From the NCBI GenBank assembly GCA_038529705.1, contig JBCBDM010000001.1, forward strand, positions 3,025 through 67,024: DNA of 64,000 bases, given 5' to 3'. A program made the translations under genes and the position numbers. Source of the DNA: Bacteroidota bacterium (GTDB taxonomy: Bacteria > Bacteroidota > Bacteroidia > Flavobacteriales > Flavobacteriaceae). Shown here piece after piece: positions 1 to 23,940 of the stretch. Positions within the stretch are counted from its first letter, which is position 1; the number at the start of each line of letters is the position of its first letter. The notes beneath the pieces were generated by a model, which worked only from the letters and a program-made list of their open reading frames with translations, made no database searches and had not been told where the DNA came from.

Positions 1-556
1 CATACGCTAGCCAATTCTCATCCAATTTTGGGAGTAGGACCGCACCTTTCCTCAAAGTTCCTGTAGTAGGTTTTTTGCCCTTGTACGCATGTTTGAACAA
101 GGTTGACCCTCTAATCCCTTTCTCTCCTGTCACCACCAGCCCTTCTAATTGCGTGTTTTCCAGAAGCTGAATAGGGGATTCCCTGTTGGTAACATATAGG
201 GCTGGTTTGGGAATAGGTCCTTTGCCTCCTAACAAAGCTATTTTGCCGAAGGCCTTTGTCTTTAGCTGTGCGGTGCTTTCCACCTTGGTATAACTCCCCC
301 AATAATCGGTTTGTATGATAGTCATGAGTCCCTCATTTCCTTTCAAAGAATCCAAAGGTTTGTTATTAGGCTGAAGACTTTGCTGAATCCCCATTTGTGA
401 TCCTGCAATGGTTTCCATTAAAAAATGGGACTGTATGTCGAATAATCGCTGAGTGTGAGACAGTAATAAAAAGGAGCCTAATAAAATGGCAATGACGACA
501 GCAACTAACAAAGAGAGCTGAAGTGCCGATGCCCTTATTTTCCTTAACCCCTTCAC
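1..556 (-). CDS. Pilin-like GspK/PilX-type protein of the T2SS-like cluster (runs off the left edge; not in the ORF track)
   Basis: Manual translation from a GTG overlapping the upstream TGA gives MKGLRKIRA-SALQLSLLVAVVIAILLGSFLLLSHTQRLF..., open to base 1. Basic leader plus hydrophobic helix resembles a class III signal peptide without Glu+5, as in GspK/PilX. Confidence 0.6.
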   Translation of the reverse strand, partial: MKGLRKIRASALQLSLLVAVVIAILLGSFLLLSHTQRLFDIQSHFLMETIAGSQMGIQQSLQPNNKPLDSLKGNEGLMTIIQTDYWGSYTKVESTAQLKTKAFGKIALLGGKGPIPKPALYVTNRESPIQLLENTQLEGLVVTGEKGIRGSTLFKHAYKGKKPTTGTLRKGAVLLPKLDENWLAY

Positions 557-1017
557 ATTATAGAAAATTCCTTGGTCTTCCCTTTGTAGCTAATAACAAC
601 TCGCTCTTCATCTCCGCTCACAAGTTTCATTTCACTCAGGACTTCCCCTCTTGTAAGCAAATTTTGTTGTCCATCTATACGCAACACAAATACCTTTTTT
701 TTCGACATCCCGTCCTCAACCATTCCTAAATACTGAATAGCAGGCCACAGAATATCTATTCCCTTATTCGCACTGGATCCGGATTTTCTTTGTGCCTTTT
801 TAGGCTGGACGTAAGCGGTTCCCAGAAAGGGGTCTTTTTCTATCGGCAACAGTTCGAAGCTTTCTCTTTCTTTTACCTGCGGTGCTGTATACGCCACTGT
901 CATATGCTCCACCATAGGATCGATCTCTGCATCGAAAAATCCAAATAATTGACTGAACACCCATCCCCAAATAACGACGACTACAGATAGTAAGAATTTT
1001 ATCTTCTTGTTCCCCAT
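553..1017 (-). CDS. PilP/GspC-like assembly protein
   Basis: N-terminal TM anchor, KDPFLG motif, then WPAIQYLGMV..VFVLRIDGQQ, a small HR-like beta domain; lies in the T2SS-like gene context. Confidence 0.5.
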   Translation of the reverse strand: MGNKKIKFLLSVVVVIWGWVFSQLFGFFDAEIDPMVEHMTVAYTAPQVKERESFELLPIEKDPFLGTAYVQPKKAQRKSGSSANKGIDILWPAIQYLGMVEDGMSKKKVFVLRIDGQQNLLTRGEVLSEMKLVSGDEERVVISYKGKTKEFSIM

Positions 1018-1023
1018 AATTCC

Positions 1024-1956: not shown

Positions 1957-2639
1957 TAGAATCTGATATCTGCTTTACGTTCTGCTTTTTCGGCCGACTT
2001 ATACATCCTTCCGCTGCAATTAGATCCAACTGGAACCAAATCCATAAGTACCACCTTGTATCCCTTAGGGGTACCCCAGCAAAATTCGGAAGCACGGATA
2101 TCGACTATGGTTCCATTGGCAAAATCCAAGCTCCCTGACGCTTTATTGTTCTCTCGAAGTTGGATAGAAAGTGTTTTCTCCTTTTGCTGAATGAGATACA
2201 GCTCATCTGCCTTGTTTAATTTCTCCAGAATCTCGGCTGGATAGCTCATGGTGACTTCGGTAATGATCCGAAAGTCATTGCCACTCTTTAAAAATTGAAC
2301 CAATTTCTTGTCCTCATTGATTCGCTGCACCAGGGAATAGCTATCCATTATTTTCAGCCTAAGTAATGTACTGTCCTTCGCTTTCGGAGCCAGCGAATCC
2401 TTCTTCCGAAAGAAGTCTCTTTTCGAAACCAGGATGGGACTCCCCATAATACGAATGGGTTTGGAAAGATCGACTATGGTTCTGGTTTGCTGCACTTCTT
2501 GCAAAGTGAACTCTTTGAAGATTCCAATGGCCCCTAGTTCAGGAAGCCGACGGTCCTCAACCTTATGATATTGAATGGATTGACAACCCAGTAAAGTACT
2601 AAAGGTTACGATGGCAAAATAAATTTTAAGTGCGTTCAT
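1956..2639 (-). CDS. Hypothetical lipoprotein
   Basis: 227-aa ORF with lipobox LLGC; its stop shares a base with the next start (translational coupling). Confidence 0.6.
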   Translation of the reverse strand: MNALKIYFAIVTFSTLLGCQSIQYHKVEDRRLPELGAIGIFKEFTLQEVQQTRTIVDLSKPIRIMGSPILVSKRDFFRKKDSLAPKAKDSTLLRLKIMDSYSLVQRINEDKKLVQFLKSGNDFRIITEVTMSYPAEILEKLNKADELYLIQQKEKTLSIQLRENNKASGSLDFANGTIVDIRASEFCWGTPKGYKVVLMDLVPVGSNCSGRMYKSAEKAERKADIRF

Positions 2640-2767: not shown

Positions 2768-3379
2768 TTACTTCAAAAAGAAGGAAAAGCCGGCATTAAA
2801 ACCAAACCCGCTTCTAATGACCCGGGCATTAATCTCGTTGTTATCTTTGGGTTTATTCTGTGTGGAACTAAAGCCTACCCCCAGATCCAGTGAGATATTA
2901 TCGGCAATAAATATGGCGACCCCACCCTCAAAACCATAGGCAAAAACCGAGTCTTTGCTCTCAATGGTACCTTCGAAAGTAGATAAGGTGGTTTCGGAAT
3001 TACTGGAACCAATCCCTACATTTCCCTCCACAAAAGGCTTCACGTTCCCCGTGGTAAAATAATACCGGGCAAATGGAGAAAACAGAAAGGTAGTAGATTT
3101 GAATTCTCCATTACCTTCTTCTTCTTTTTCAGAAATAAGGATGACCGGGATCTCAACACCAATAGCCAGGTTGTCGATCACAAAATATCCTGCTCCAGGA
3201 GCCAAAGCGAAATTGGTATTTTTCTGAAGGGTAACATCTGTGTTATCCGATTTCAATTGGATCTTTTCCGCATTGAATCCTAGTCCAACGTCACCCCCTA
3301 TTACAAAACCTCCTTTTTCGGTTTGGGCTGTTAAGGCAAAGGGTAATAAGATTGCAGCAAGAACTAATAATTTTTTCAT
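2768..3379 (-). CDS. Outer-membrane beta-barrel protein (OmpA-like/porin family)
   Basis: Signal peptide, alternating amphipathic strands, aromatic C-terminal strand GFNAGFSFFLK. Confidence 0.75.
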   Translation of the reverse strand: MKKLLVLAAILLPFALTAQTEKGGFVIGGDVGLGFNAEKIQLKSDNTDVTLQKNTNFALAPGAGYFVIDNLAIGVEIPVILISEKEEEGNGEFKSTTFLFSPFARYYFTTGNVKPFVEGNVGIGSSNSETTLSTFEGTIESKDSVFAYGFEGGVAIFIADNISLDLGVGFSSTQNKPKDNNEINARVIRSGFGFNAGFSFFLK

Positions 3380-3396
3380 GTAAATTCAGGTTTTCG

Positions 3397-4689
3397 TTAT
3401 TCTTTAATAAATTGTTTGGACACCACTTCGGTAGTGGTGAAAATTCGAGCCAGATAGATACCGGAAGGTAAACTAGAAACATCAACTTCCCGACGGTTAG
3501 ATTCTTCGATTACCAACGCTCCTGCAGTGGTGTAAACCTCGATCTCATCGATGGCCTCAGAACTTTGTATACGAATCTGTTGTTTCGCAGGGTTTGGAGA
3601 CAAAGAGAATGCTACCAATGCATTATCATCCACCCCCAGAATGCAGTCCTCACTATACGTGGTGGTTGCGTCCTTACACCAACCTTCCCCTATGGGATCA
3701 ATACACATCTGGCTATTGGCATAGTCTTCATCGTCCACCAAAATACATTGCAGATCCGGATTGTTGAGGGTTGAAATAAAGGTGATGATTCCGCTATTTC
3801 CGTTTTTAATATTGAGTGAGGTAAGTTCGTTGTCTCTCAAAAAAGCTACTTCCAAATTTGGGTTCAACGAGAAGTCCAAATGGGTGAGTAGGTTTTCAAA
3901 CAAAACCACGGTTTCCAGATCAATATTCTGAGAAAAATCGATAGTCCCGGTTAAATCATTGAAGCCCATAAACAAAGTATTGAGTGCTGGATTTTGAGTG
4001 ACATCAATGGTGGTAAGATTACAATTGTTGGCTTCCAGGAAATCCAGTGCCGGATTCGCAGAAACATCCAAGCTTGTCAATGGATTGACACTTACTTCCA
4101 GTGATTCAAGATTGGGGTTTTGAGATACGTCCAAATTGGTTAGTTCATTGACCGCACAATCTAAATAGACCAAATTTGGATTTTGGGTTACATTGAGACT
4201 TGCAAATTCATTACCCCCTACATCCAATAACTCCAGATTCACATTTTGGGTGAGGTTGAGTTGCGTCATATCATTAGACCTTCCAATCAATTCCCTTAAG
4301 CCAGGATTTTGGGTGACATCCACAAAGGCAAAGAAATTGGAACTAAAGTCCAAAACCTCGAGGTTGGACATCTCTGTAACATCTACAATTTGCAAATTAT
4401 TATCGCTACAGTCCAGGATCACTACATTATCGAAGGCCTCGGAGCCCTGCATATCGTTGATGCCAAAATCATTGACATACAAAGCCGTCACTGCCAAGGC
4501 TTCCGAAAGCTGCACCTCTCCATCGTTATTGGTATCCACATCTGTATCGCCTACACCATCATCATTGGTATCCACTACGGGATTATTCACCAAGGCATCC
4601 TTAAAGATAGGGTCAGGGATATTGACGATTTGGGCTTGGACAGCCAAAGAAAGAAAGAAAAGTAGTGTGAGTAGGTAGTATGGTTTCAT
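3397..4689 (-). CDS. T9SS type A cargo, leucine-rich-repeat (internalin-like) protein
   Basis: Signal peptide; DTNNDGEVQ Ca-binding-like motif; about ten LRRs (L..LDV..N..L..L); CTD LSPNPA...SLPSGIYLARI...KQFIKE. Confidence 0.85.
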   Translation of the reverse strand: MKPYYLLTLLFFLSLAVQAQIVNIPDPIFKDALVNNPVVDTNDDGVGDTDVDTNNDGEVQLSEALAVTALYVNDFGINDMQGSEAFDNVVILDCSDNNLQIVDVTEMSNLEVLDFSSNFFAFVDVTQNPGLRELIGRSNDMTQLNLTQNVNLELLDVGGNEFASLNVTQNPNLVYLDCAVNELTNLDVSQNPNLESLEVSVNPLTSLDVSANPALDFLEANNCNLTTIDVTQNPALNTLFMGFNDLTGTIDFSQNIDLETVVLFENLLTHLDFSLNPNLEVAFLRDNELTSLNIKNGNSGIITFISTLNNPDLQCILVDDEDYANSQMCIDPIGEGWCKDATTTYSEDCILGVDDNALVAFSLSPNPAKQQIRIQSSEAIDEIEVYTTAGALVIEESNRREVDVSSLPSGIYLARIFTTTEVVSKQFIKE

Positions 4690-4743
4690 GTATTGTTTGT
4701 TAGGTTATGCCAGATTTGATTAATTATATTCTTTATATTCCAA

Positions 4744-4770
4744 GCACCAGTTACAAACTGGCGCTAGCGC
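4744..4770 (-). repeat. Short hairpin plus palindrome (REP-like element or terminator) downstream of the putative immunity gene
   Basis: Minus strand GCGCCAGT-TTGTA-ACTGGTGC forms an 8-bp stem with one G-U pair; overlaps the perfect palindrome GCGCTAGCGC (4761-4770). Confidence 0.4.
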
Positions 4771-4834
4771 GGGGATACTCATGTTGGTCAGAGATTCAAT
4801 GTACAAAATTTATGTTCTTAAATTACTCCATCAA

Positions 4835-5227
4835 CTAATTTGCAGTGTTAACCCCAAACATATCGTTAAAATTTAATTTGTCATGAATTATTTTGATTTT
4901 TGTTTCCAATATGAAATTATATTCTATCATAATCAATTGTACTGATTTGTCATTTTCACATACTATAACTCTGTGAAAAGTTCTATGAAAAATATTCTCA
5001 ACAGTTGATCGGATTTTTCTTTCAATTCCAAGTTTTTTCAAGTTTTCGCTTGGTGGTAATCTAATTTGACCGTTGCAGACTATACCTTTCCTTTGAGCTT
5101 TCTTAATAGCTTTCTTTAATGTTTTATCGGTTCTGTACGACCAAGAGAAAGATTTGAAATAGATAAAAAAACATAAATACAATATGCTTATTAAAATTAA
5201 TAGGTAAATTATAATTTCTAAGTTCAT
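4835..5227 (-). CDS. Putative cognate immunity protein of the Rhs toxin (membrane-anchored)
   Basis: 130 aa, directly downstream of and overlapping (ATGA) the Rhs stop; very AT-rich (10 G+C in 4861-4920); N-terminal hydrophobic helix. Confidence 0.6.
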   Translation of the reverse strand: MNLEIIIYLLILISILYLCFFIYFKSFSWSYRTDKTLKKAIKKAQRKGIVCNGQIRLPPSENLKKLGIERKIRSTVENIFHRTFHRVIVCENDKSVQLIMIEYNFILETKIKIIHDKLNFNDMFGVNTAN

Positions 5228-8200
5228 CTTCTATTTCTTAAATAAATTCCCCCATTTATGTCAGCTACAAAAAAAGCTCCAATGGAGATTCCACTTCCAA
5301 TTCCAAATAAATTTACATTATTATTCGTGTCTTGACTTGCTTGTATTAATAACATTTTTTCACTCATTGTAGTTGTGCTATTAATTAAAGAATTATCATA
5401 GCGTGTTAAATTATCGACGGTTTCTACCGAAAATCCTGCAAGCACATCATACCCGACTCGGTGAACAAGCCTTTGAGTGTCATCATTTAAATAATAAAGT
5501 TCAGAATTATTTTCAAAACCATCAATTATATTAAATGAAAGGTCCACATCTAAATCAAATAAAACAGCAGAATGATGACCAGCTTCAAACCCTCCAACAC
5601 CTTCAATATCACCTGCAATTTGATTACCAACTGAAAGTCTAATTTGTCCATTAGCGGAAACTTCTAGACTTTCTTTTACTCTTCTCAGCCCATTTTCTCG
5701 AAGTTCATCAGCTGTATCCGAAACAAATTGTTTTGTCTGTTGGTTTTCAATTAATTCTTGCTCAGAATCGGCAAATCCACCGAACGTAAACAGATTCTTA
5801 AAAAAGTTTTTTATAATTCTTCCGTAACATGGCGGATCAGGACAATCCATACCACCATCTGGATCAATTCGTGAAATAGGGTTATTCCCCATCCCAAGAT
5901 AAGGAGAAAAATGTTGTTTTGCCGGATCTGTCGTCAACCATCTTCCCAATCTTGCATCCCAGAGTCGTAACTCAAAGGCCTCCATCCCTGTCTCATCATC
6001 CTTTTCCTGTCCTTGGAAGGCATAACGATATTCCCCTTCCTGATTGCGCTCCGGCATGGGCATCCCAAAGGGATAATAATCCTTATACGCCAGCATGATG
6101 GGGGTATTGTTGGTGGAAATATCGGTAATAACCACATTGTCGATGGTATAGATATTGGTCCAGCTTATAGCGCCATCATTGTTCAAGCCAAAGTATAAGT
6201 TGACCGGGCCTCCCATCAAGGAAGTATATTGAAAGGTAATGCTGCCCCCTTGGGAAGTCACATTGGGGTTTTGAAAGACGGTATTGGTACTCACCCCATA
6301 ACTTAGTGAATTGGCACTTATTAATCCCAGGTCAAAACTAATACTATAGCTTCGGTGGGCCACCGTGTTAAAGGATAGGTAGATCCCATTCTTTGCCTGT
6401 ACACTGGGGACATCGGCTCTTAACTCCTCATTGGTCGCGGTCACATTGGTTCCGGTAAATCCGTGCCAGGGCGGCATGCTCACGATGTTAGAGGCAAAAT
6501 CTTCCTCGTACACGATCTGCGGACTAAAATCCCTCATGATCACCCCGCGTACATTCCCCAGATGGTCGGTAAGCTCATATTTATAGATGCCAGCATCGTC
6601 TCCAACGCCCAAGCGGGAAGCCCCGTAAATTGGAAATTCTAATTCAGAGGTCATACCCGAATCTCCACCGCCATCAGGGTCCAGGGTATGAATAGCCAAT
6701 ACCTGCCCGGATATGTCCCGTACGTAAAAGGTAGAAATGGGATCGTTGTTCGAATCGATGAAGCGCTTTTCCACACGGTGTCCCCGGTCATTATAGTAAA
6801 ATTCCACTCGTTGGGGATCATTGGTAATGGTAGAATACACCGATTTTACCAAACCATTGGTATAGTAGCTATACCCCAACTGATCCTGTACATTTTCTAT
6901 CAACTGACCAATGCTATTGTATACATAGTTCCCGGAATTTTGATCCTTAATATCTCCATTCTCGGCCGTATTCCCTGAGGTATCATCCACATGGCCCAAT
7001 TGATTGCTGTTGGGTAAATAGTTGTACTGTAAATTATCCATGACATTCCCGCCACTGGTATATTCTCTTGTTCTGGTTAAGGACTGAATATTCCCGTTGG
7101 GATCATAGGTCAACCCGGAAACACTAAAATCCGGCGTGGCACCACTGGTGTAGATATTACCATTCACACTCCCAAAGGTAGCAGCACTCAACCACTTGTT
7201 CCCATTGTATTGATATAAATATCCATTTTGAGTGCCAGGGGTATTCAAGCCTTGGGTGGCCCATCGGGTACCTTTGATATTGCCGTCAAACCGATTGTAA
7301 CCACTGGGAGAAGAACCGATGGCTACACTATTTCTAGAGTAGTCCTTTTCGTAATAATCCAGGATCAAGCCGAAGGCGTTGTTGGTATCATTTCCGGGAT
7401 CATTCGCAGAGAGGTCCGAATTGTTGATGGACTTCAATCGCCCGTCCAGGGTATAAACATAATCGATCCCCTGCAGGCCTTGGGCCAAGATGATGCGCTT
7501 CAACTCCCCACTTTTATAATAGGTGTACCGTGCATGTTCCATATAGTTGATATTGTCTCGAGACGTTTCCACAATTTTTAGTTGCCCTATATCATTGTAT
7601 TGGTATTTATGGGTAAAGCGCTCGGTGGCCTCTCCTTTTTGATACAATACTTTGGTCACTTCTCCTGTAGATTCGTCATATTCATAATCGAGGGTCTTTG
7701 CCCCCAGGCCATTCACATGTTGTACGATCCATTCTACACGCCCATATACATCGTAACTATACCAAGTAGTAGTAGTTTCAGGATTCTTTGTATAAGTTTT
7801 AGAGACGTTTCCAGTAAGATGTTGTTGCACGCGCAGTTCTCCCACTCCAAATCCCAGGTTCCCAGGATAGAGCACATCATGAAGCCCTTGGGTATCTTTT
7901 ACGTCATAGACCGTAAAAACCTGTTCTGCGCAGGTAGCCGGGTCCACTACCCAATCGTCAATGGATGGGGGTGCCGGAATAAAATTGGCATCTAGCTCTT
8001 CCAATTGAATGTTGGAAACGACGGAGCCTGTTTGAAATAGCTGTCCATCTATCAAGTAAGAAGGGGTAGTTGCCGCCAAACTCAATGTATAGAAGGTCTG
8101 GTCATTCTTTTTGAAATATACATTCTGCCCAATTCTTTCAATTTGAAATACATCATTCTCGTCATAGATAGTTGCCGACTTAGTAAGGCCTGCCCCGTAG

Positions 8201-13400: not shown

Positions 13401-16302
13401 CATTCAATACCAAATTTGCATTGGACTGTATCTCCAACTTCTTGTTGGAAACATCATTGATATGGGAGTAGGTAGGATAGGTAGAAGTGTAAATTCCTTT
13501 GGTATAATTGGTGAAATAGAAGTTGTGGTCGACCGCCGAATAGTGTTCGTGCTGATCATAATCTATCTTGATCTTTCCCCCCTGAGGTGTTTGAATTTCA
13601 TTAAGCGACCATAATGAATTATCATGGGTAAAATAACCCCATTCGTCTTTCTTATTGATATCCCAGATATATGAGAGGTCATTGTATTTGAATTTATAGG
13701 AAGGAACCGTTTGCACCCCTCCTTTTCCTTTAAATACGACTTTGCTAAGTCCCGACTTATTATTCTGATAAACCAGAGGTTCATAAAGCATATCGATCAC
13801 CTTCAAGGCCTTATCGTACAGCTCAGAATCCATATCCACCTTATTGATGGTATTAGATCTGTAATTATATCTGGCACTTACATTCTCTTTAACCGAATTG
13901 TTATACTTAACGTTTACGGTTGAATATGTGCCACTCTCTCCCGGACCATGTGTAGTTACGGCCGTGGCGTCTTCATTCTTCAAAAGTAAAACCTCTGCCA
14001 GACGCAATTGTTTTTGAGCAGGAATGGTAAATCTCGCTACATAGTCTGCATTGGTTTGATTTACATTGGCATGAACCACAGATCTGTACGTCCATGCTTC
14101 TGATTCCTCATGAGGGCTTTCCTCTTTTACAAATACTGCTGTATGTGTCCTCGTAGAAACTGTGTTTAAGTAGAACAGCTCTTTTCTACCGCGAATCCAG
14201 GTTTTCGTTCCTGAATTTTCATCGCTCTCACTTTCTATATAATCTTTGTCGTATGGGTTTTTCCAAACAAATGCTTCACTCCACTTTCCATAGGAGAAAC
14301 TTGTCCAATATCCATAATCCCCTTGATTGGCAATACCATCGTTATTCTCATCAATATAATCCGGTCCTGTGACTGCGGTTAACAACCAATGGGTGGCGTA
14401 GGGTTCAAGCTGTCGTTTTTCAAAGTAAGATTCATCTTCCTCTTTGGGTATTTCATCATTACCTTCTTTGATAATTCCGAACGTTCTGGTAATTATTTCC
14501 TCGTTATACACAGGTAAGGAATAATGGAACGTTTTACCATCGGCAGCGGTTATCTTAAAAGCACCAATTCCGTTTCTTGGTTTAGTGCTTCTATCAAAAG
14601 TGCTCGTGGTAACGTCCGCGTTAAGATATCCTTCGCTTTTGATCGTAGTGTAATTATCGAGAATATCTCCATTGGTATAGTACTCAATATAATTTGATGT
14701 TGTTCTTCGATCTTCTCCAGCCAGCTGAACCCCATTCGAATAATAGTCTTCTATGTCATTGAAATTTCCTGAACTGAAGAAATTCGCTGAACTCACATCG
14801 GCATCCAAATAGGAACTAATCTCGTTGTCGAAATAGAAATTGGGACGGTCGTCGAACTTGGCGAAATCCGGAATAGCTCCTAAGCCATCAATTTCGTAGC
14901 CCAACGTATACCCTTGATCATTTTCTTTTCCATCCAATCCAAACAGGGCTCCATTTTCAAAAATGCGTGGAGAAATATTTCCAGAAATTCCTTGTGCTTG
15001 AACATTGAACTTATCGAAATTAGGGAAGGTCAAGTTATTCGTAGCTGCATCGGTCGTCTTGGCCATCAAGGGTGAAATTTCATGGATGTCCATAAATGAC
15101 TCCGGGCCCTGGATTTGGCGTAAGGTGCAGTAACAACCATAGGGGTCGCCAGGAGGATCCTCAGTTGCCGCTTTAAAATCCAATGCCTCGTTGTAATCAT
15201 TGGTAACGAGATAACCGCAAATTTCCGGACCATCAACGGGATCATCGCTAATACACTCTACTTCCCAGAGTTGACCATTGCTTACGCCATCATAAAAATA
15301 GAGTGGTCCTTCTATATGGTTCTTGTCGACTTGTCCTAAATAATATCGAATACGTTGTTTCCCAAAGGATAAACTAAATACGCCTATAGGTGTTGGTACA
15401 TATAGCGGAATATTAAATCCACTACTTTTCACCGTATAGTCTCCCATACTTACCGAGTTGTTAAATGAGGTACTCAAGCCAACTCCGCCCCCAGTAACCG
15501 TATTTCTAATCGATCCCGAAATACCAACTCCCGATGAGGAAAAACTTACTCCCAGGGATCCTGTTAGTTTATTACCTATTCTATCGGTAATTCCAAACGA
15601 ATAACTTCCCTGATTACTGAAACCAATGGAGAATCCTTCACCATTGCTGTTAAACCCAATGGATCCGCTAACGTTCCCATTGGTTGAAATACTGGCTCCA
15701 AGAGATAATTGACCACTCTGTCCTCCAATACCGGCAGAAATTCCAACGGAGGCCCCGTCTGTTCCAATTTCCCCTTCAATACCAATACCTCCTCCTAAAC
15801 CAATTCCAACACTTACAGATCCTCCCAAACTTCGGTGACTTCCCCAGGATAAACCCACACCTACCGAGACTCCGTTCGAATACCCAACAGATAGCGAATA
15901 CATACTTTGCGTTCCTCCTTCATCATAGAAGAATTCTGTTAAGAGAGCACTATTGTAATCGTCCGGATAACCGTTAATGTTTCTATTAATAGCTCCGGGA
16001 TTTAAGTTCCAGCCCAGTCCGGTCCAGGATGCCTCCTGATCCATGGCTATACCAGAATGATATGCCAATGCCAATGGGTAACCCCCTTCCGGACTGGGAA
16101 CATTTAACAAGGGTAAGACATATGTGAAGTCCCCAGTGGCCAAATTCACCATGTCCGTGGCATCCACCGGTTCGAAACTTGCCGCCTCAGGAGCGTTGGG
16201 TCCATTATTATTTGCCAACAAATAATTGTAGGGAACAAAGGTTTGAAGGAAATTCAAAATTAGAAAAACAGCTATGACTCGGTGTTTTGGCTTAATTTTC
16301 AT
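10492..16302 (-). CDS. Giant YD-repeat protein with TcB/SpvB/DUF6531-like N-terminus (putative Rhs shell partner)
   Basis: Signal peptide; DMVNLATGDFTYVLPLL..PSPEGGYPLALAYHSG...ASWTGLGWNL; YD-type strands (TSYVYNDKDEL, TKYQYDASGKLIRVY); no Rhs core; Cys-rich C-terminal extension. Confidence 0.7.
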   Translation of the reverse strand: MKIKPKHRVIAVFLILNFLQTFVPYNYLLANNNGPNAPEAASFEPVDATDMVNLATGDFTYVLPLLNVPSPEGGYPLALAYHSGIAMDQEASWTGLGWNLNPGAINRNINGYPDDYNSALLTEFFYDEGGTQSMYSLSVGYSNGVSVGVGLSWGSHRSLGGSVSVGIGLGGGIGIEGEIGTDGASVGISAGIGGQSGQLSLGASISTNGNVSGSIGFNSNGEGFSIGFSNQGSYSFGITDRIGNKLTGSLGVSFSSSGVGISGSIRNTVTGGGVGLSTSFNNSVSMGDYTVKSSGFNIPLYVPTPIGVFSLSFGKQRIRYYLGQVDKNHIEGPLYFYDGVSNGQLWEVECISDDPVDGPEICGYLVTNDYNEALDFKAATEDPPGDPYGCYCTLRQIQGPESFMDIHEISPLMAKTTDAATNNLTFPNFDKFNVQAQGISGNISPRIFENGALFGLDGKENDQGYTLGYEIDGLGAIPDFAKFDDRPNFYFDNEISSYLDADVSSANFFSSGNFNDIEDYYSNGVQLAGEDRRTTSNYIEYYTNGDILDNYTTIKSEGYLNADVTTSTFDRSTKPRNGIGAFKITAADGKTFHYSLPVYNEEIITRTFGIIKEGNDEIPKEEDESYFEKRQLEPYATHWLLTAVTGPDYIDENNDGIANQGDYGYWTSFSYGKWSEAFVWKNPYDKDYIESESDENSGTKTWIRGRKELFYLNTVSTRTHTAVFVKEESPHEESEAWTYRSVVHANVNQTNADYVARFTIPAQKQLRLAEVLLLKNEDATAVTTHGPGESGTYSTVNVKYNNSVKENVSARYNYRSNTINKVDMDSELYDKALKVIDMLYEPLVYQNNKSGLSKVVFKGKGGVQTVPSYKFKYNDLSYIWDINKKDEWGYFTHDNSLWSLNEIQTPQGGKIKIDYDQHEHYSAVDHNFYFTNYTKGIYTSTYPTYSHINDVSNKKLEIQSNANLVLNVGDKVWVNYEGKYPPLNGQGVLSGYNGWATVTTALGINRYEVTFDNDMTLEYGGSATNIPLIESYLNGPNSHYFEKFYRGTEVRFNTANKVLKGGGVRVTQIATEDGSTSYKTEYKYGENEDGIGYVSYIPFAHELEEEVPYSAELPSPKVMYEYVTTKSVGDDDVVHGKTVYKFNVLKDRTGTAEFGNFYEIDTDFTTTFTNSTANKEVNISNFTVKDNLASIGQLLEVKTYNSENQPVQITKNEYFSPEETPSLVGMTKESYQTYKSVDYSDATKTDKWIVNSSTRIKYPNLLKSTTSISNGVAQESEFTQFNPVNGMSDEIITKDSKGVLYKTVNVPAYQKYPDMGSKVANVHNRNMLTQNAANYSFVDDNGTWRPIGVGITTWSNNWIYTDYRGIDEPQESSNNKKVWRKDRTYIWDGDIDANGRLVGFDTSNDDGFNWAVGANQPNPWKKVSTITKYNHFSEVLEVKDINNNYATTRTTDKESKVLLTSNARYGEAIYTSAEYDNLPGDNYLDHDVFGLNFQTDEKSHTGEYSVKIGPGGNSVSTTFGTVLRANQFRAGEYKISAWIHKDNYTKARIKMGWTGALENFNGERTTAGNWVLMNHYFDISQAQTNSNQIILVTSEAGDIFIDDFRILPVASSMTSYVYNDKDELTFILGPNNLATKYQYDASGKLIRVYQETANTASITGGFKKAVEYKYNYQRGLDGSSGGGGGCQPEPVYFDDFSSCVGLGPSSGVLRGPIGTTVTYAVQNQTGGDGTATLLVNGVPGSGSFTITAANQDPVFEVAYVPGPSNGQGAATVTITAVDNECYATLGQSLTISDNYDPTFTGTCSGDPDPITEISVILNQLNIDLCYENGPDTNLTHLVHVESASDEFRYTWEWAYMDGGIELAPRNFIGEIEDEGGSASMSELFIIGPAQAICDPSTNYGVKFICTVRDMVNYPTIQDIEVEKVHTSFNCTNCIEQ

Positions 16303-16352: not shown

Positions 16353-16964
16353 TCATATATCAAATTGCAACATGGGCTCATCTTTTATTTTGCGCACGCT
16401 CATCTTGAATTTCACTTCTCCGGTTTTCACTCCGATATCCTCTATAGACAAGGTTAGTTCTCCATTGTCTTTGACTACTTCGTCCCTGGGAAACACAAGT
16501 AACATGGATGTAGCATGGGTCATTCCATACATCCTAGGATATACATAGTCTTTCATGTTTATAGTATCTTTATTTTTATTGTAGAGGTGTATTTTTTGGT
16601 CCATTCCGAAGGACAATTGATTCACCATAGCGCCAAACTCGTGTCTATTGCTGGGAACAGCACTTAAAAGCTCCCTACCATTTTTAGACAGACTTAAATT
16701 GAAGTAGACATTCTCTTGATAGAATGCACGTAATGAATCTATACTAGCCTTTGTAGAAACGCCCTCTAATTCTTGAATGACCGTAAGATCAACAGGCCGA
16801 TACATCAAAGAAATCTCCACCCCATTCACTTGCTTCTTTTGCAGATATCCGTTCTCAGGATCGCTGATATAGGATAGTAGTTCTTCTTTGGTATCAAAGC
16901 TCTTTTGCTGACAACCTGTAGCGAAAATGGCTAGTACAAATAAAATCAAATAGGCTCCCCTCAT
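16353..16964 (-). CDS. Hypothetical lipoprotein co-transcribed with the Rhs genes
   Basis: Probable start MRGAYLILFVLAIFATGC (lipobox) at 16964, 7 bp after the ompH stop; the ORF-track extension to 17072 overlaps ompH and is unlikely. Confidence 0.7.
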   Translation of the reverse strand: MRGAYLILFVLAIFATGCQQKSFDTKEELLSYISDPENGYLQKKQVNGVEISLMYRPVDLTVIQELEGVSTKASIDSLRAFYQENVYFNLSLSKNGRELLSAVPSNRHEFGAMVNQLSFGMDQKIHLYNKNKDTINMKDYVYPRMYGMTHATSMLLVFPRDEVVKDNGELTLSIEDIGVKTGEVKFKMSVRKIKDEPMLQFDI

Positions 16965-16971: not shown

Positions 16972-17505
16972 CTATTTGGCGTTGAATTCTTTGTTGAGAC
17001 CCTCCAAGACCTCATCGGTGAGATCGGAGACATCGTCTGCATACATGATATTGCCCCCACCGCTAGCACCAAAAATCACTTTGTAATTGTGCTTTTTCCC
17101 ATACTCCTTTACAAAGTCGTTGATGTCATTCACTACCGTTTGGGTAGCCTTTTGGTCTTCCTCCTGGATTTGCTTTTGGATAGCCTGTTGGTATTGGCCA
17201 ATTTGCTGCTGTTTGTTGCTCAGCAATTCCTGCTTCAACTCCAGCTCTTTTTTAGTCATGGATGCCCGTTCTTTTTCGTAGGTCTTTAGTTCTTCCTGCC
17301 AATTCCCTATCAAACTATCCACATTGGCTTGCAGTTGTTGCGCCTTAGTTTCGAACTTGGATTTTTCCACTTTGGTACGCGCATATCCGTCCACCAATTT
17401 GTTGACGTCTACGTATACGAGTTCTGAAGAGGATTGGAAGTAAAAAAAAGAAAAAACGGTAGCTGCTAAGGCTAAAATTGAAACGGGTAATGCTAGTTTA
17501 TTCAT
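16972..17505 (-). CDS. ompH: OmpH/Skp family periplasmic chaperone
   Basis: YVDVNKL motif, long Gln/Lys/Glu coiled coil, C-terminal YKVIFG...IMYAD...DLTDEVLEGLN; probable start MNKLAL at 17505. Confidence 0.85.
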   Translation of the reverse strand: MNKLALPVSILALAATVFSFFYFQSSSELVYVDVNKLVDGYARTKVEKSKFETKAQQLQANVDSLIGNWQEELKTYEKERASMTKKELELKQELLSNKQQQIGQYQQAIQKQIQEEDQKATQTVVNDINDFVKEYGKKHNYKVIFGASGGGNIMYADDVSDLTDEVLEGLNKEFNAK

Positions 17506-17538
17506 GGATGTATTTATATAGTTCACCTGCGCCTTCAA

Positions 17539-17558
17539 TCTGAAAATCTGATTTCAGA
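17539..17558. promoter_or_regulatory. Inverted repeat in the divergent promoter region
   Basis: TCTGAAA-N6-TTTCAGA. Confidence 0.3.
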
Positions 17559-17638
17559 AATCCTCGCAAGTCGTTGAAAATCTTGAACTAAACTAGACCA
17601 TTTGTTTGGAAATAAAGGCAAAAAAAAAGCGGTTGAAA

Positions 17639-17658
17639 TCGCAATTCATGAATTGCGA
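17639..17658. promoter_or_regulatory. Perfect 20-bp palindrome, candidate operator of the divergent Rhs and T2SS-like operons
   Basis: TCGCAATTCATGAATTGCGA is its own reverse complement and lies between the ompH and pilin starts. Confidence 0.5.
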
Positions 17659-17763
17659 CTTGTAAATTTTGGAGTAAAAAATTGTCCTTCAATCGCTTAG
17701 AACAAAAAAATGCTGAAACCCCAAAATTTGGATTTTCGAAGGCTTAAAATCTTACTTTTAAGT

Positions 17764-18183
17764 ATGAACATTTATAGGAGAAAACCACTAAAAAAAGTTC
17801 CGGCCTACACCATGGCCGAAGTACTTTTTGCACTCGCCATTATCGGAATAGCTGTCTCCATTGCCATTCCCATTTTTTCACCGGCTACAACCAAAGCCAA
17901 GGCCACGGAAGCCCAATTACAACTGAAGCATATTCACAACCTTCAAACACAATTCCGCTATGTGCGGTCCAAATACTCTATGGATTTCTATGAAATTGAT
18001 TTTGAAGCCCCCAAAACCGTCAAAGAAGAGGGTTTTGCCAATTATCGATACGAAATCATCCAGGCCTCGACTACCTCCTTCAAGGCGAGAGCAGAAGCCG
18101 TAGTGGATTTCGACGGAGACGGGATCGTTAACATTTGGGAGATCGATGAAAATGGTGTTCCTAAAGAAATTACCAAAGATTGA
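17764..18183 (+). CDS. Type IV pilin/major pseudopilin (GspG/PulG-like)
   Basis: KKVPA|YTMAEVLFALAIIGIAVSIAIP: class III signal peptide with Glu+5; C-terminal DFDGDG motif; probable start at 17764 (ORF track begins 17710). Confidence 0.85.
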   Translation: MNIYRRKPLKKVPAYTMAEVLFALAIIGIAVSIAIPIFSPATTKAKATEAQLQLKHIHNLQTQFRYVRSKYSMDFYEIDFEAPKTVKEEGFANYRYEIIQASTTSFKARAEAVVDFDGDGIVNIWEIDENGVPKEITKD

Positions 18184-18674
18184 TCTGGACCCTTATTAAA
18201 ATAGTACTCATGGGGACACTGGGAATTATCGGTGTACAGGACCTTAAAGAGAGACAGGTCTGGGCTTTTCTGTTTCCATTATTTGGCGTACTGGGAGCGG
18301 TACTATTCTATCCGAAGGTGACTCCGGCTTTTTTTTGGCTCTCCATTGTCATCAATCTAGGGTTGGTAATCGTGATATTGTTGATCAATTTCATAGTAGC
18401 ACGATATATTCTGAAAAAGAATCTATTCAAAGAGGCCATGGGCCTGGGAGATGTGTTGTTCTTTATGGGATTTGCGATCTCCTTTCCCACACTAACCTTT
18501 ATCAACCTATTTGTTTTCTCCATCCTATTCACCCTTGTCTTTCATTATGTCCTTACATTTTTGAATCGGTCAGTCCTCGCCACCATTCCCCTGGCCGGAT
18601 GTATGTCCTTGTTTTTAACAACCATCTATCTCATCCACTGGACGGGATTTTATGACCCATTATATTTTCTGTAA
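18180..18674 (+). CDS. Prepilin peptidase A24-like (short, peptidase domain only)
   Basis: Multi-TM; catalytic Asp motifs QDLKER and MGLGD; overlaps the pilin stop. Confidence 0.75.
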   Translation: MIWTLIKIVLMGTLGIIGVQDLKERQVWAFLFPLFGVLGAVLFYPKVTPAFFWLSIVINLGLVIVILLINFIVARYILKKNLFKEAMGLGDVLFFMGFAISFPTLTFINLFVFSILFTLVFHYVLTFLNRSVLATIPLAGCMSLFLTTIYLIHWTGFYDPLYFL

Positions 18675-20075
18675 ATGCAATCATTTGAAATACCCACATC
18701 TCTAAAACAACTCATTAGCTCCAATCAGGCTTTTCACTACCGGATCGTCCCAATGGAAAAAAAGGGAGATGTGGTGGTTTTTAAAACCGATGCCGAACAT
18801 CCGGAACTCTTGCATTCTGAATTATCCATTGTTTTCAACTTCACTCCCGAACTCCAACATGACTCTTCAGAAAACATTCAGGCTTACCTTATATATAACT
18901 ATCGTCAAACCACCACCGCTCTGGGTGGAATTTCGGAAGCTACCTTCCTGGAAGAATTACTACAGACCGCCAAAGACTTCAATAGCAGTGACATTCATCT
19001 GGAACCTTATGAAACTCTCTGCCGTGTTCGGTTTCGCCTGGATGGCAAACTCAAAGAACACTATCAAATCTCCCTGAACCAGTATCCAAAGATCATTAAT
19101 ATCATTAAACACAGGGCAGAACTGGACGTATCCCAGAAAAGGCTTCCACAAGATGGAAGGATAACGGTAAAAGGAGTGGACGATGATTTCGATATCCGGG
19201 TCTCAACCATGCCTTCATTGCATGGCGAAAAGATCGTTCTTAGGATTCTCAAGCAAGACGCGACGGGAGTGGAATTAAAAAACCTCGGATTCAAAGAGCG
19301 TGAATTGAAATTGTACCTGGAGGGCATCAAGATGACTACCGGTATTATTCTCATATCGGGACCCACTGGTTCGGGTAAAACCACCACATTGTATGGAACG
19401 CTCAAGCTATTGAACAGCGAGGAGAAAAATATCCTTACCGTTGAAGACCCCATAGAGTATACTTTAGATGGGGTAAATCAAGTACAACTCAAGGAGGATA
19501 TCGGCTTGGACTTTCCAAGAACCCTCCGAACGTTCCTTCGGCAGGATCCCAATGTGATCATGGTAGGAGAAATCCGGGATAGAGACACAGCAGACATGGC
19601 TATTCGGGCGGCTTTAACCGGGCATCTGGTATTGTCTACCATTCACACCAATTCCGCTTGGGCTACAGTCTCCAGACTTATCGACATGGGAGTACCTCCT
19701 TTTCTGGTAGCCAGCACCCTAAAATTAAGTGTAGCCCAACGGTTGGTTCGAAAGCTATGTGATCATTGTAAACGAATGGAGCCTGTTACCGAAAACCTAT
19801 TTCCGGAGAGCTTTTCAGAAAAAAAAATGATCCCACAACACTATGTATCCGTGGGCTGTAACCAATGTCATTTTACCGGATATAGCGGACGAAAAGCCTT
19901 GTATGAGATCATCCCTGTTCGGGCCGAATTGGAGCAGGCCATCAAGCGCAATGCCTTGCAGATAGATGATTATTTGATCGAAAATGACCTGGGGACGCTT
20001 CAAAGCAACGCCATAGATATGATTATCAAGGGCGAAACCACAGTAGACGAAGTTTATTCGCTATTGACAAACTAA
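18675..20075 (+). CDS. gspE: GspE/PilB family secretion ATPase
   Basis: Walker A GPTGSGKTT, Asp box TVEDPIEY, LRQDPNVIMVGEIRD, His box STIHTNSA, tetracysteine CDHC..CNQC. Confidence 0.95.
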   Translation: MQSFEIPTSLKQLISSNQAFHYRIVPMEKKGDVVVFKTDAEHPELLHSELSIVFNFTPELQHDSSENIQAYLIYNYRQTTTALGGISEATFLEELLQTAKDFNSSDIHLEPYETLCRVRFRLDGKLKEHYQISLNQYPKIINIIKHRAELDVSQKRLPQDGRITVKGVDDDFDIRVSTMPSLHGEKIVLRILKQDATGVELKNLGFKERELKLYLEGIKMTTGIILISGPTGSGKTTTLYGTLKLLNSEEKNILTVEDPIEYTLDGVNQVQLKEDIGLDFPRTLRTFLRQDPNVIMVGEIRDRDTADMAIRAALTGHLVLSTIHTNSAWATVSRLIDMGVPPFLVASTLKLSVAQRLVRKLCDHCKRMEPVTENLFPESFSEKKMIPQHYVSVGCNQCHFTGYSGRKALYEIIPVRAELEQAIKRNALQIDDYLIENDLGTLQSNAIDMIIKGETTVDEVYSLLTN

Positions 20076-20082
20076 CTAACAC

Positions 20083-22206: not shown

Positions 22207-23417
22207 TGTTAAATAGATTGCTGTCTTACATATCCTATGGCTCCTCCTTTTGCGGGATAGAAGTGAACACTTTCGATGCAAGTGATCAATTCTTTGCAAT
22301 TACCGCTGAAAAAAGGAAACAGGAATTTGAAAAATTCGACTTTTATAAGGAAGATTCGTTGGCTGCCCTGTCTCAAAAGGTCGGCAAAAACCGTCACGCT
22401 TTTTTGATCATCAACACCGATAAGGTATTAGTAAAGGAAGTCGCTTCAAGCTTTGACCAGAAAAATGCACTCGCCCATGCCTTTCCTGGTCTATCTTCAT
22501 CAGAATTCTTCTTCGAAGTGGTGAAATTCTCCGAAAAGACATTTGTCGCTGTATGCCGTAAAGAGGAGGTGGAGTCCATTATCCGCAAAGCCGAAGTCAA
22601 CCATTTCCATGTACTGGGGTTTCATCTAGGCTTTACCTCTTTGAAGGCCCTCTTACCAAGCTTGAGTTACGACGAATTGCCTACACAACGATTCTCCATT
22701 ACCCTGGAGAATCAAGAAATTGGATCGTTTTCCCTCAACCAGGAAAATGAGCATTTATTCTGCCATATTCAGGGCGTTGAGATTCATTCCCACCATATTC
22801 TGGCTCTATCCGGGCTTACAGGGCCCTTAACCAACAGTAAGGAACTATTGGGCAATACCACAGCGACTTCTGTCGATTTAAAAAAGCTCTTTCTGGAAAA
22901 AGCTTTCTTCCGGAATGGACTAAAACTGGCCGTTACCCTGCTACTGGTCATCGTCATGGGCAACTTATTTTTTTTCAATCAATTCAGAAAAAAATATCAA
23001 CAATTGGACGCTGAAGCCTCTTTGATTTCTACTCAGCAGCGTACCATAAAAACAAAGACCGAGACCCTAGAATTAAAAGAGAGTATTGTAAAGAATATTC
23101 TGAATAGCGATCACTCCAAAAGTTCATTTTTTATCAATAGGCTAGTATCCGGAAAACCCCCTTCCGTTGTATTCTCCGAAATTCATTATCAGCCCCTGGA
23201 AAGAAACCCCCGGCCGGATAAGGCCATTCAATATCGAAAAGGGACCATCGTTTTATCCGGGGAAAGCGGAAGCAAGGAAGCCTTTTCTCAATGGATAGAG
23301 ACGTTGGAAGCAGAGGATTGGATTTTGGAGGTGACCATCTTAGACTATGGAATGGCTCAAACAACTCGAGATCTCTTTCACATTAATCTAAAGCTCAATG
23401 AAGACTCCAAGAAATAA
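22206..23417 (+). CDS. PilM/PilN- or GspL-like assembly platform protein
   Basis: N-terminal cytoplasmic domain, one TM (LAVTLLLVIVMGNLFFF), coiled coil, PilN-like C-terminus (IVLSGES..FSQWIETLE..WI); coupled to gspD. Confidence 0.6.
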   Translation: MLNRLLSYISYGSSFCGIEVNTFDASDQFFAITAEKRKQEFEKFDFYKEDSLAALSQKVGKNRHAFLIINTDKVLVKEVASSFDQKNALAHAFPGLSSSEFFFEVVKFSEKTFVAVCRKEEVESIIRKAEVNHFHVLGFHLGFTSLKALLPSLSYDELPTQRFSITLENQEIGSFSLNQENEHLFCHIQGVEIHSHHILALSGLTGPLTNSKELLGNTTATSVDLKKLFLEKAFFRNGLKLAVTLLLVIVMGNLFFFNQFRKKYQQLDAEASLISTQQRTIKTKTETLELKESIVKNILNSDHSKSSFFINRLVSGKPPSVVFSEIHYQPLERNPRPDKAIQYRKGTIVLSGESGSKEAFSQWIETLEAEDWILEVTILDYGMAQTTRDLFHINLKLNEDSKK

Positions 23418-23940
23418 GAATATAGTACTGATTGTAGGGTTTATCATTGTACTGTTATTGTCCTACAGATTCGTCCTCTCCAAAACGATCTTCCTGAAAA
23501 ATGAGATCTCCAAACTCGAGCAGCATCTTGTTAGTTCGGAAGATTTGGCCCACATCGCCCTACAGCTTGACCAGCGCGAGAAATTTATAGATTCTGTACT
23601 TCAGAAGAACAATCTAAAGCACCTATCCATCCAAAATAATTTACTGGAATTTTTAAACCGTGAAGCACGGGAGGGCACCTTCCAAATCACGCAGTTTACG
23701 GAGCCACATCGATCTGTTGAAAATGAAGTAACCACTACTTCGTATCGGTTTACCCTCAGAGGGTCTTTTCTCGCTTGCGAACAGATTATCTATCAACTTG
23801 AACAAGCATATAATTTCGGAAAAATTACTCATTTGAAGTTCGAGAAAAAACGAGACTTCCGGAAAGGGAAGGACTACCTGGAATGTAATGTGATCATAGA
23901 AAGTTTTGTTTCTCTACAAAGAGTGAGGGCACTAGATTAA
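23398..23940 (+). CDS. PilO/GspM-like protein
   Basis: N-terminal TM, coiled coil, ferredoxin-like C-terminus (FTLRGSF...IYQLEQ); overlaps the previous gene. Confidence 0.6.
   Translation: MKTPRNKNIVLIVGFIIVLLLSYRFVLSKTIFLKNEISKLEQHLVSSEDLAHIALQLDQREKFIDSVLQKNNLKHLSIQNNLLEFLNREAREGTFQITQFTEPHRSVENEVTTTSYRFTLRGSFLACEQIIYQLEQAYNFGKITHLKFEKKRDFRKGKDYLECNVIIESFVSLQRVRALD

Follow-up and report, generated by a model that had tools for sequence, protein, structure and literature searches.

Between the two halves of a gene cluster for a type IV filament (TFF) machine, a Bacteroidota bacterium of the family Flavobacteriaceae carries a toxin module, which consists of genes for an OmpH-like chaperone, a lipoprotein, a large YD-shell protein that we call BIG, an Rhs polymorphic toxin and a small immunity-like protein. 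We found this arrangement in positions 1-23,940 of a 64,000-nt stretch of contig JBCBDM010000001.1 (the window), and the link between the machine and the module recurs in related bacteria. The gene content, the synteny seen from both sides, the way the domains are arranged and the finding that OmpH and the lipoprotein occur together with one segment of BIG are established observations. We consider a functional coupling of some kind between the machine and the toxin module probable. We put at about 0.5, judged from the genes, the probability that the Sec-exported YD-shell pair depends on the filament machine to get to the cell surface or to the outside.

Linkage of the toxin module and the filament machine

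On the machine side, the GspE protein was searched against one genome per species, which yielded 80 loci, 48 of them at least 20 kb long. The open reading frames (ORFs) of all 80 loci were grouped into families, with both ORF calling and grouping being heuristic, and a hidden Markov model (HMM), BIG-N, was built from the ~80-aa N-terminal domain of BIG (aa 35-115). The BIG N-domain was detected in large proteins of 36/80 loci, a DUF6443 region in 22/80 and an Rhs core in 24/80. A gene with BIG-N, DUF6443 or an Rhs core was positioned within 10 kb of gspE in 39 of the 48 long loci (81%). Other large neighbours of the cluster (SprB-repeat, SBBP/type IX secretion system (T9SS) and AAA proteins) were unrelated and were left out of these counts. 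A first-pass annotation of this DNA had proposed the coupling and had made it depend on Rhs genes not being absent from most orthologous clusters, and most of the long loci indeed have a gene of one of these three kinds. Moreover, 32 of the 38 BIG-N genes directly adjoined a TFF gene, separated from it by nothing more than ompH and the lipoprotein gene.

We could distinguish two types of module. Type A has the order OmpH-lipoprotein-BIG-Rhs and was found in the window, Aureisphaera, Aequorivita, Salegentibacter, Christiangramia, Aquimarina, a Bacteroidia metagenome-assembled genome and others, with more distant versions in Vicingus and Paludibacteraceae. Type B has neither OmpH nor the lipoprotein; in it, a BIG-N protein of reduced length (1000-1400 aa; families F16 and F38) precedes a ~1400-aa DUF6443 Rhs protein with core and toxin. 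The position of the module relative to the machine varies, since it can be divergent from the pilin gene, follow GspF, follow the 154-aa gene or, in T. amylolyticum, follow the secretin. In eight Tenacibaculum loci it is co-directional and comes directly after the PilO-like gene, with gaps of 58-200 nt. Because the linkage persists through at least four arrangements, it points to selection on adjacency and not to simple inheritance.

We also looked from the side of the toxin. A genome sample of six BIG homologs, picked for long contigs and taxonomic spread, had a TFF cluster or secretin beside BIG in four cases (Psychroserpens, Flavobacterium pedocola, Flagellimonas and T. amylolyticum), and no TFF genes beside the module in Kordia and F. 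anhuiense. A metagenome scan, which used type-A N-domains only and left out type-B proteins, gave 80 further loci. TFF genes were within 10 kb of BIG in 9 of the 26 metagenome loci with both flanks, against a chance expectation of ~1%, which is our own estimate (TFF cluster of ~12 kb, genome of 3-5 Mb, 10-kb distance) and not a computed control. Synteny, one of the checks that had been named for the coupling, therefore also holds in the converse direction, at 35-65%. The module itself was conserved in the metagenome loci, with OmpH upstream of BIG in 45/55, the lipoprotein upstream in 47/55 and an Rhs-like gene downstream in 32/39. These loci fit a picture in which each genome has a single machine but several modules, and in which one of the modules often lies next to that machine.

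The module has further variants. A ~500-aa TPR protein follows BIG in Psychroserpens (locus L081, 15329-16834) and in F. pedocola (L083, 15071-16573). In F. pedocola the gene precedes an LTD/RHS protein. The arrangement looks like a variant module.

Our literature searches found no paper linking a Bacteroidota TFF machine with Rhs/YD proteins, which agrees with the first-pass annotation, to which no description of the coupling was known, and no paper naming DUF6443.

The filament machine

The features of the analysed stretch are listed in Table 1.

Table 1. Features in positions 1-23,940 of the window, ordered by position
Feature	Position	Strand	Basis
GspK/PilX-like minor-pilin-type protein (F9), N-terminal part	1-556	-	hydrophobic N-terminus RASALQLSLLVAVVIAILLG
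PilP-position protein, 154 aa	553-1017	-	family in 46 loci, always inside TFF cluster; no Pfam match
Lipoprotein with fn3/Ig-like repeats, 310 aa	1024-1956	-	weak fn3/Ig Pfam matches; family in 43 loci
Lipoprotein F49, 227 aa	1956-2639	-	lipobox LLGC; matches beside TFF genes in L033, L030, L085
Small outer-membrane β-barrel protein, 203 aa; membership in system uncertain	2768-3379	-	OMP_b-brl E=3.8e-13
Leucine-rich-repeat (LRR) protein, 430 aa, with T9SS type-A C-terminal domain (CTD)	3397-4689	-	Por_Secre_tail E=1e-10; LRR_4
Immunity-like ORF, 130 aa	4835-5227	-	4-nt overlap with Rhs stop codon; N-terminal transmembrane segment
Rhs polymorphic toxin, 1747 aa	5224-10467	-	TIGR03696 (Rhs_assc_core) 58.7 bits vs 32.5; TIGR01643 (YD_repeat) 25.5 vs 15.8
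BIG, YD-shell protein, 1936 aa	10492-16302	-	Sec signal; homologs named YD/RHS-repeat; model matches teneurin shells
Lipoprotein, 203 aa, between OmpH and BIG	16353-16964	-	true start 16964; lipobox FATGC, MRGAYLILFVLAIFATGC
OmpH/Skp-like periplasmic chaperone, first module gene	16972-17505 (ORF to 17538)	-	PF03938 E=4.4e-25
Divergent intergenic region, toxin module/pilin operon	17506-17763	.	perfect 20-bp palindrome inside
Major (pseudo)pilin	17764-18183	+	N_methyl motif; PilA/GspG/ComG model matches
Short prepilin peptidase-like membrane protein	18180-18674	+	Peptidase_A24 E=4.4e-5, 24.3 bits vs cut-off 26.5 (weak)
GspE/PilB-type assembly ATPase	18675-20075	+	T2SSE E=1e-122; PilB 7.8e-138; GspE 6.9e-135
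Secretin, 707 aa	20083-22206	+	Secretin E=1.9e-38; PilQ 2e-45; GspD 2.5e-41
PilM/PilN-like fusion protein, 403 aa	22206-23417	+	weak PilN match; family in 71 loci
PilO-position protein, 180 aa	23398-23940	+	family in 69 loci; no profile match

The right half of the machine begins with the pilin. Its ORF spans 17710-18183, the start is probably at 17764, and the predicted cleavage between A and YTMAE gives a cysteine-free mature form of ~125 aa. The prepilin peptidase family occupies the same cluster position in 72 loci, and the ATPase, which is most similar to that of Aureisphaera among the sampled species (74% identity), scored below the equivalog cut-offs of both the PilB and the GspE model. 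The same is true for the whole set, as models for GspD, GspE, GspG and a GspO-type peptidase were matched in the window, all under the NCBIfam equivalog cut-offs. The places of GspC, GspL and GspM, none of which was found, are occupied by PilM/N/O/P-like genes. We found no second assembly ATPase in the window, including a PilT-like one, and PilT may still be encoded elsewhere in the genome.

In the related loci the usual order is pilin, peptidase, GspE, secretin, PilMN-like, PilO-like, fn3 lipoprotein, 154-aa protein, F11, F9 (~418 aa), two small N_methyl pilins and F8, which is GspF (T2SSF, 1.7e-43) and ends the orthologous clusters. GspF is not within the window and probably lies just beyond its left end. 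The fn3 lipoprotein family is usually positioned directly after the PilO-like gene or directly before the secretin, the F49 lipoprotein is found upstream of the PilP-position gene in the Aquimarina and Tenacibaculum clusters, and F9 stands between the PilP-position gene and the minor pilins in ~37 loci. The F9 gene continues past the left end of the window, and an overlapping contig (L167, 1362-2603) contains its complete form of 413 aa, followed by a minor pilin with the cleavage site between KKIRAG and TIVE. Because of the synteny in more than 40 loci and this overlapping contig, the far-left genes of the window are the second half of the same machine, which is here split in two by the toxin module. 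The first-pass annotation had described them as PilP/GspC- and GspK/PilX-like genes of the machine. Their membership is borne out by synteny, whereas the names come from position and N-terminal appearance, with no profile match.

F9 has a long C-terminal region with repeated GN(V/I)-type motifs, which is atypical of a minor pilin, and its homolog in L044 gave a weak bactofilin-like β-helix match. At the other side, two tandem paralogous regulators with TPR repeats and an AraC-type helix-turn-helix (23932-25620 and 25633-27309, minus strand; 61% identical) converge on the end of the right half of the TFF cluster. They are not conserved in the orthologous loci save for one weak partial match (L012).

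Gene set and order place the window machine within the Cytophaga-type Bacteroidota TFF system. The 'T2SS' (type II secretion system) of Cytophaga hutchinsonii comprises CHU_3191-3202, which correspond to Fjoh_0611-0622 in F. johnsoniae (PMC5553014). There, CHU_3197 is the equivalent of the peptidase, CHU_3194 of the PilM/PilN-like protein and CHU_3193 of the PilO-position protein, while CHU_3191, tied to PilP by HHpred, is the equivalent of the 154-aa protein (PMC5553014). The two clusters share GspF, pilin, peptidase, GspE, secretin, PilMN-like, PilO-like, an unnamed gene, PilP-like and minor pilins, and they share this order. Both are Bacteroidota systems with undefined substrates, and direct substrates of the Cytophaga system were not found (PMC5553014). 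They differ in that the window cluster is split by a toxin module, and the consulted sections of that paper mention no YD/Rhs link for Cytophaga. Denise et al. placed the Bacteroidetes system with the type IVa pilus (T4aP), away from T2SS, as a possibly novel T4aP-derived secretion system (PMC6668835).

BIG contains a predicted membrane-inserting segment

Signal peptides, which had been reported for both large proteins of the module, are visible by eye at the N-termini of BIG and of the Rhs protein. In BIG, the signal is followed by the N-domain at aa 35-115 (nt 15958-16200), a Gly/Ser-rich segment at aa 118-331 (nt 15310-15951), the shell and the C-terminus. The conserved shell region ends in YD-type repeats at ~aa 1640-1690, and the 250-aa tail is variable, Cys-rich and Ig-like (nt 10495-11235). 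BIG had no Pfam, NCBIfam or PDB sequence match of its own. At least 1244 homologs were found, named hypothetical, YD-repeat or RHS-repeat proteins, and the source names among the matches listed were all flavobacterial. We modelled aa 1-1200 with AlphaFold (AF2) using 53 homologs (pLDDT 75, pTM 0.70). The best Foldseek matches in PDB were the bacterial teneurin-like protein 9ifo and teneurin-2 (E ~1e-4, low TM-scores), and the top matches of the model were teneurin YD shells plus outer-membrane barrels.

The first-pass annotation had called the protein TcB-like. This has a weak basis in consistent sub-threshold Pfam matches to SpvB in 13/24 BIG N-domains (profile positions 3-55 only), next to matches to DUF6531 in 7/24. 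In BIG itself there was no SpvB or FG-GAP match at E<=0.01 and no Pfam match to a propeller domain, and no TcA was found. A TcB/SpvB identity of the N-domain was rejected, as a PDB profile search returned no TcB and had adaptin as its best match (E=0.024). The N-domain may thus be a distant relative of the TcB/SpvB-type shell start, a weak resemblance and not a membership.

The Gly/Ser-rich segment was modelled as 14 short antiparallel strands, with pLDDT ~70-89 when modelled alone. All top Foldseek matches of the isolated segment were outer-membrane β-barrels (porins, OmpG, VDAC, FadL, NanC, FapF; probability 1.0, TM ~0.3). Eleven consecutive strands are amphipathic throughout the family, with V/I/L/F on one face and G/S on the other. 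The segment is therefore predicted to be an outer-membrane β-barrel, and in the model this points to a membrane-insertion step. Among the BIG-N proteins that have the segment, 13 of 14 adjoin an ompH or lipoprotein gene and 12 of 14 adjoin both; none of the 21 without it do so. By this co-occurrence pattern, it is the barrel-like segment that the chaperone and the lipoprotein accompany, and not the machine as such. The 203-aa lipoprotein had no Pfam, NCBIfam or PDB match, and neither had the PilO-position and PilP-position proteins.

Some homologs of BIG (P0019, P0036, P0049 and P0071) end in HINT/intein-type domains. From their sequences, BIG-type proteins may themselves carry releasable C-terminal payloads.

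The Rhs protein and its immunity-like partner

The Rhs protein has a Sec-type signal, a variable N-region of ~210 aa, a weak DUF6443-like stretch (aa 226-294), YD repeats, the core and a C-terminal domain. The core is at aa 1463-1538 (nt 5854-6081) with both aspartate motifs (TTDPAKQHFSPYLGMGNNPISRIDPDGG; DPAKQ...(x)...DPDGG), so the protein sequence has the DPxG...DPxG pattern of self-cleavage. Several YDxxGR-type motifs are present, and the PDB sequence matches were the Rhs-derived SGS1 and SGS4. The 208-aa C-terminal domain (nt 5227-5850) is unique, as similarity to nearly all relatives stops at ~aa 1538-1559. Neither this toxin domain nor the 130-aa ORF had a Pfam, NCBIfam or PDB match. 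The two genes have the arrangement of a variable C-terminal toxin with a small immunity gene downstream, and small ORFs also come after the Rhs genes in L082-L085 and L166. These sequence features make the 1747-aa protein a bona fide Rhs polymorphic toxin. The GC content drops to 0.361 at 4001-6000, compared with ~0.42-0.45 around it, over the Rhs toxin tip and the immunity ORF, which fits a swapped toxin-immunity cassette. Because the toxin end is glycine-rich and hydrophobic and the immunity protein is membrane-anchored, we infer that their sequences suggest a membrane target of the toxin.

The YD shell of the Rhs protein is interrupted by two lineage-specific β-rich insertions (~aa 655-830 and ~1320-1456), which are missing in the homologs of L016, L019 and L024. 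These insertions, as well as a β-rich insertion of BIG (aa ~1520-1640), have a lectin-like or carbohydrate-binding-module-like look and may be receptor-binding modules. In L065 and L071 (also L044 and L072) we observed arrays of ORFs of 270-355 aa which have an Rhs core start and then diverge, that is, orphan toxin cassettes. These arrays adjoin TFF clusters with no full-length Rhs gene in view.

The intergenic region and neighbouring genes

The palindrome between the toxin module and the pilin operon (17639-17658, TCGCAATTCATGAATTGCGA) occurs only once in the window and was not matched in any of 100 shuffles. It may be an operator, and it is not conserved in other loci. No shared regulatory motif was found in the ompH-pilin intergenic regions of 12 loci, Bacteroidota -7 boxes were inconsistent, and scans for sigma-70 promoters and terminators gave counts not above those of shuffled sequence.

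The genes named in the first-pass annotation are where it had placed them. It did not mention the genes for the outer-membrane β-barrel protein and the LRR/T9SS protein, which lie between the left half of the machine and the immunity ORF. The LRR/T9SS protein showed no general association in the BIG-anchored loci and is probably a neighbour and not a part of the system. The OMP_b-brl gene could be a further accessory or a coincidence. In Flagellimonas nanhaiensis a ~200-aa OMP_b-brl gene also comes after Rhs and a small ORF (L084, 20242-20844), and in both places it adjoins a gene with a T9SS CTD, LRR in the window and PKD/CHU_C in L084. T9SS cargo was rejected as an extra conserved member of the module, as CTD HMMs matched almost none of the BIG-anchored loci.

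The rest of the window contains, according to family scans, housekeeping genes and several T9SS cargo genes. The latter are at 39959-43025, 29170-30942 and 52454-54055 and comprise two paralogous DUF5122 β-propeller proteins, a CHU_C protein and an FG-GAP/ASPIC protein, and from this gene set the organism has an active T9SS repertoire. BIG and Rhs had no match to PF18962, PF13585 or TIGR04183, nor to an HMM built from the CTDs of the window itself, which confirms the earlier observation that neither ends in a T9SS CTD. As had also been noted, VgrG, Hcp, PAAR, TcA and CdiB are missing; none was found in the 40 other window ORFs scanned, a set that leaves out five ORFs of at least 120 aa close to the right end. 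No TcA gene was noticed in the related loci either, and the family scans of the window gave no other known export signal or machine. The TANFOR toxins (PMC7073777) are a different family and gave no match.

A model for export and its alternatives

In the model that we infer, the TFF machine and the toxin module between its halves would work as one functional unit. BIG and Rhs would reach the periplasm via Sec, and OmpH and the lipoprotein would handle the amphipathic Gly/Ser-rich β-segment of BIG. With its pseudopilus piston and secretin, the machine would carry the YD-shell proteins to the cell surface or release them, and the β-barrel segment would either anchor the complex in the outer membrane of the producer or insert into that of the target cell. 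The Rhs core would cleave itself, the encapsulated 208-aa C-terminal toxin would be delivered to competitors, and kin would be protected by the membrane-anchored immunity protein. That export depends on the machine, how the barrel segment is oriented, that BIG and Rhs form a complex and that the toxin is active are what sequence and structure prediction suggest. A broader version, in which the machine is a dedicated exporter or arming device for two-component YD-shell toxins (a BIG-N protein with a DUF6443/Rhs protein) phylum-wide and the OmpH-chaperoned β-segment is a translocon that enters the outer membrane of producer or target, can be put forward tentatively.

Several points weigh against export by the machine. 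A folded shell of ~200 kDa is large for a secretin channel. The secretin exit proposed in the first-pass annotation is further complicated because BIG carries a predicted outer-membrane β-barrel segment tied to OmpH and the lipoprotein, and this barrel could bring BIG to the surface without the secretin. The adjacency could come from co-regulation or cooperation instead of export. In 9 of the 48 long TFF loci there is no BIG-N, DUF6443 or Rhs-core gene, and ~60% of the BIG modules are not beside a TFF cluster. The loci are mutually related, so that the counts overstate independence. The barrel assignment itself comes with moderate pLDDT (~70-89) and low TM-scores (~0.3), and a search for RNA runs with the window sequence found marine-metagenome DNA runs only.

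As the main alternative, we have to consider that BIG is a self-exporting outer-membrane protein similar to an inverse autotransporter, whose N-terminal barrel enters the membrane assisted by OmpH, the lipoprotein and BAM (β-barrel assembly machinery) and whose shell stays outside, so that the machine is not the exit. The adjacency would then reflect shared regulation or cooperation, with a pilus or adhesin bringing cells together for contact-dependent delivery. The β-segment, which matches outer-membrane barrels only and has amphipathic strands, speaks for this, as do its strict co-occurrence with the Skp-like chaperone and the lipoprotein and the OmpH-lipoprotein-BIG-Rhs modules that stand alone in Kordia, F. 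anhuiense and ~65% of the metagenome loci. However, the 21 BIG-N proteins without barrel, OmpH and lipoprotein are linked to TFF genes equally tightly, and some of these barrel-less genes are operon-like, after the PilO-like gene or GspF. The Rhs partner has neither a barrel nor a known export signal, and no inverse-autotransporter Pfam domain was matched, so we regard self-export as unlikely. Adjacency could also have no functional meaning if Rhs-type genes simply pile up at a recombination hot spot beside the TFF cluster. Rhs loci are hot spots of rearrangement, orphan arrays of Rhs core/toxin cassettes are near some clusters (L065, L071), and the GC content falls over the toxin-immunity cassette. 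A hot spot would not be expected to give an association that is two-way, recurs in several families and takes at least four gene orders, and that involves the conserved non-toxin BIG and its N-domain and not mobile toxin tips only; we find this highly improbable.

If the machine were a DNA-uptake or adhesion pilus, the Rhs module could be a co-regulated killer that lyses neighbours before the uptake of DNA or nutrients, and machine and module would not be physically connected. The divergent promoter arrangement with its unique palindrome, the weak pilin matches to ComP and ComG models and the grouping of the machine with T4aP and not T2SS (PMC6668835) would agree with this. The first-pass annotation had offered a competence-type pilus as its alternative, which is weakened by the described naturally competent flavobacteria that have no pilus homologs (PMC8459023). 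Naturally competent Riemerella is without pilus homologs and uses other genes, while F. johnsoniae has the cluster and yet is not transformable (PMC8459023; PMC7965970). The window also has no ATPase of the PilT kind, and the BIG-N gene of many lineages is operon-like within the machine genes and not at a shared promoter, which leaves the uptake pilus rather improbable. We consider it very unlikely that BIG and Rhs are the cargo of another system encoded elsewhere, such as T9SS, the T6SSiii subtype of T6SS (type VI secretion system) or a Tc-type TcA syringe. The organism has T9SS cargo genes, one of them directly downstream, and it has been suggested that Bacteroidetes polymorphic toxins are T9SS cargo (PMC7073777). 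However, a CTD of type A or type B is missing from both proteins, the BIG-anchored loci show no enrichment of T9SS cargo genes, Sec signal peptides do not suit T6SS export, and VgrG, PAAR, Hcp and TcA were not found in the window.

Comparison with known systems

The module resembles the TcB-TcC cocoon in having two adjacent large genes, the first with a weak SpvB-like start and the second with an Rhs core, a cleavage motif and a variable toxin, and YD-shell folds are expected from the models in both. It differs from Tc toxins in the absence of TcA, the under-threshold SpvB matches, the lack of a TcB match in PDB and the lack of a Pfam propeller match. Moreover, BIG and Rhs both have a Sec signal and each is long enough for a whole shell, the window adds an OmpH chaperone, a lipoprotein and a predicted β-barrel segment, and the small immunity gene indicates bacterial targets. 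In the T6SS, RhsA-EagR combines an Rhs shell around a polymorphic toxin with an adjacent immunity gene and a chaperone beside a hydrophobic N-terminal membrane-inserting region. The window module likewise has an encapsulating Rhs shell, an adjacent immunity gene and a dedicated chaperone gene by a putative membrane-inserting region. In contrast to T6SS Rhs/Eag, it has no PAAR, VgrG or Hcp, Sec is the way into the periplasm, and the segment is of β-barrel type on a separate partner and not made of transmembrane helices.

Inverse autotransporters (type Ve; intimin, invasin) have the same domain order as is predicted for BIG, with a Sec signal, a short periplasmic N-domain, a barrel and a large C-terminal passenger, and they depend on a Skp-type chaperone. 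The likeness is in the domain order alone, as there is no sequence relation according to Pfam, BIG has ~14 predicted strands compared with 12 and a ~1600-aa YD-shell passenger, and its module is genetically tied to a secretin-pilin machine. The T2SS-beta operon of E. coli encodes its own very large Sec-exported cargo, SslE/YghJ, together with lipoprotein and prepilin peptidase genes. Here too, the gene of a huge Sec-exported protein is inside the gene cluster of the machine. However, SslE/YghJ is a mucinase lipoprotein and not a toxin shell, and its machine is a canonical proteobacterial T2SS. From the canonical T2SS the window machine differs by PilM/N/O/P-like genes in place of GspC/L/M, in line with its T4aP placement (PMC6668835). 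From the type IVa pilus it differs by the lack of PilT in the window and by a pilin without cysteine and hence without a disulfide.

The best structural matches of BIG were to teneurin-like proteins (TLPs; 9ifo) and to teneurin-2. TLPs are Sec-exported shell toxins with immunity genes, whose delivery machinery is not known according to a 2026 paper (PMC13018210). They differ from BIG in that they are single proteins with a TIP domain, mainly from Myxococcota and Bacillota, and the paper describes neither a case from Bacteroidota nor a partner protein or a tie to a filament machine (PMC13018210). In the survey of Zhang et al. 2012, 'T2SS' essentially equals a signal peptide, and the TcdB/TcaC class is listed in Bacteroidetes without a machine.

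Implications

What may be new here is the recurring genetic link between an Rhs/YD toxin module and the Bacteroidota filament machine, which would make the machine a candidate trafficking partner of the toxins. Rhs/YD-shell toxins are known as cargo of T6SS, of the type VII secretion system and of Tc syringes, or else as surface proteins that leave by Sec and for which no delivery device is known. For the filament machine of Bacteroidota, in turn, no substrate has been identified since 2017. The link gives each of them a testable partner, both for the question of what the machine exports and for the question of how Sec-dependent shell toxins leave a diderm cell. If true, it would be a new secretion route for Rhs toxins and a function for the Bacteroidota 'T2SS', and the association of OmpH, lipoprotein and barrel would add to toxin delivery a new example in which the element that inserts into the membrane has a chaperone. 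Since Flavobacteriia are major polymer degraders in the sea and in soil and include fish pathogens, a widespread antagonism system of this kind would bear on community structure.

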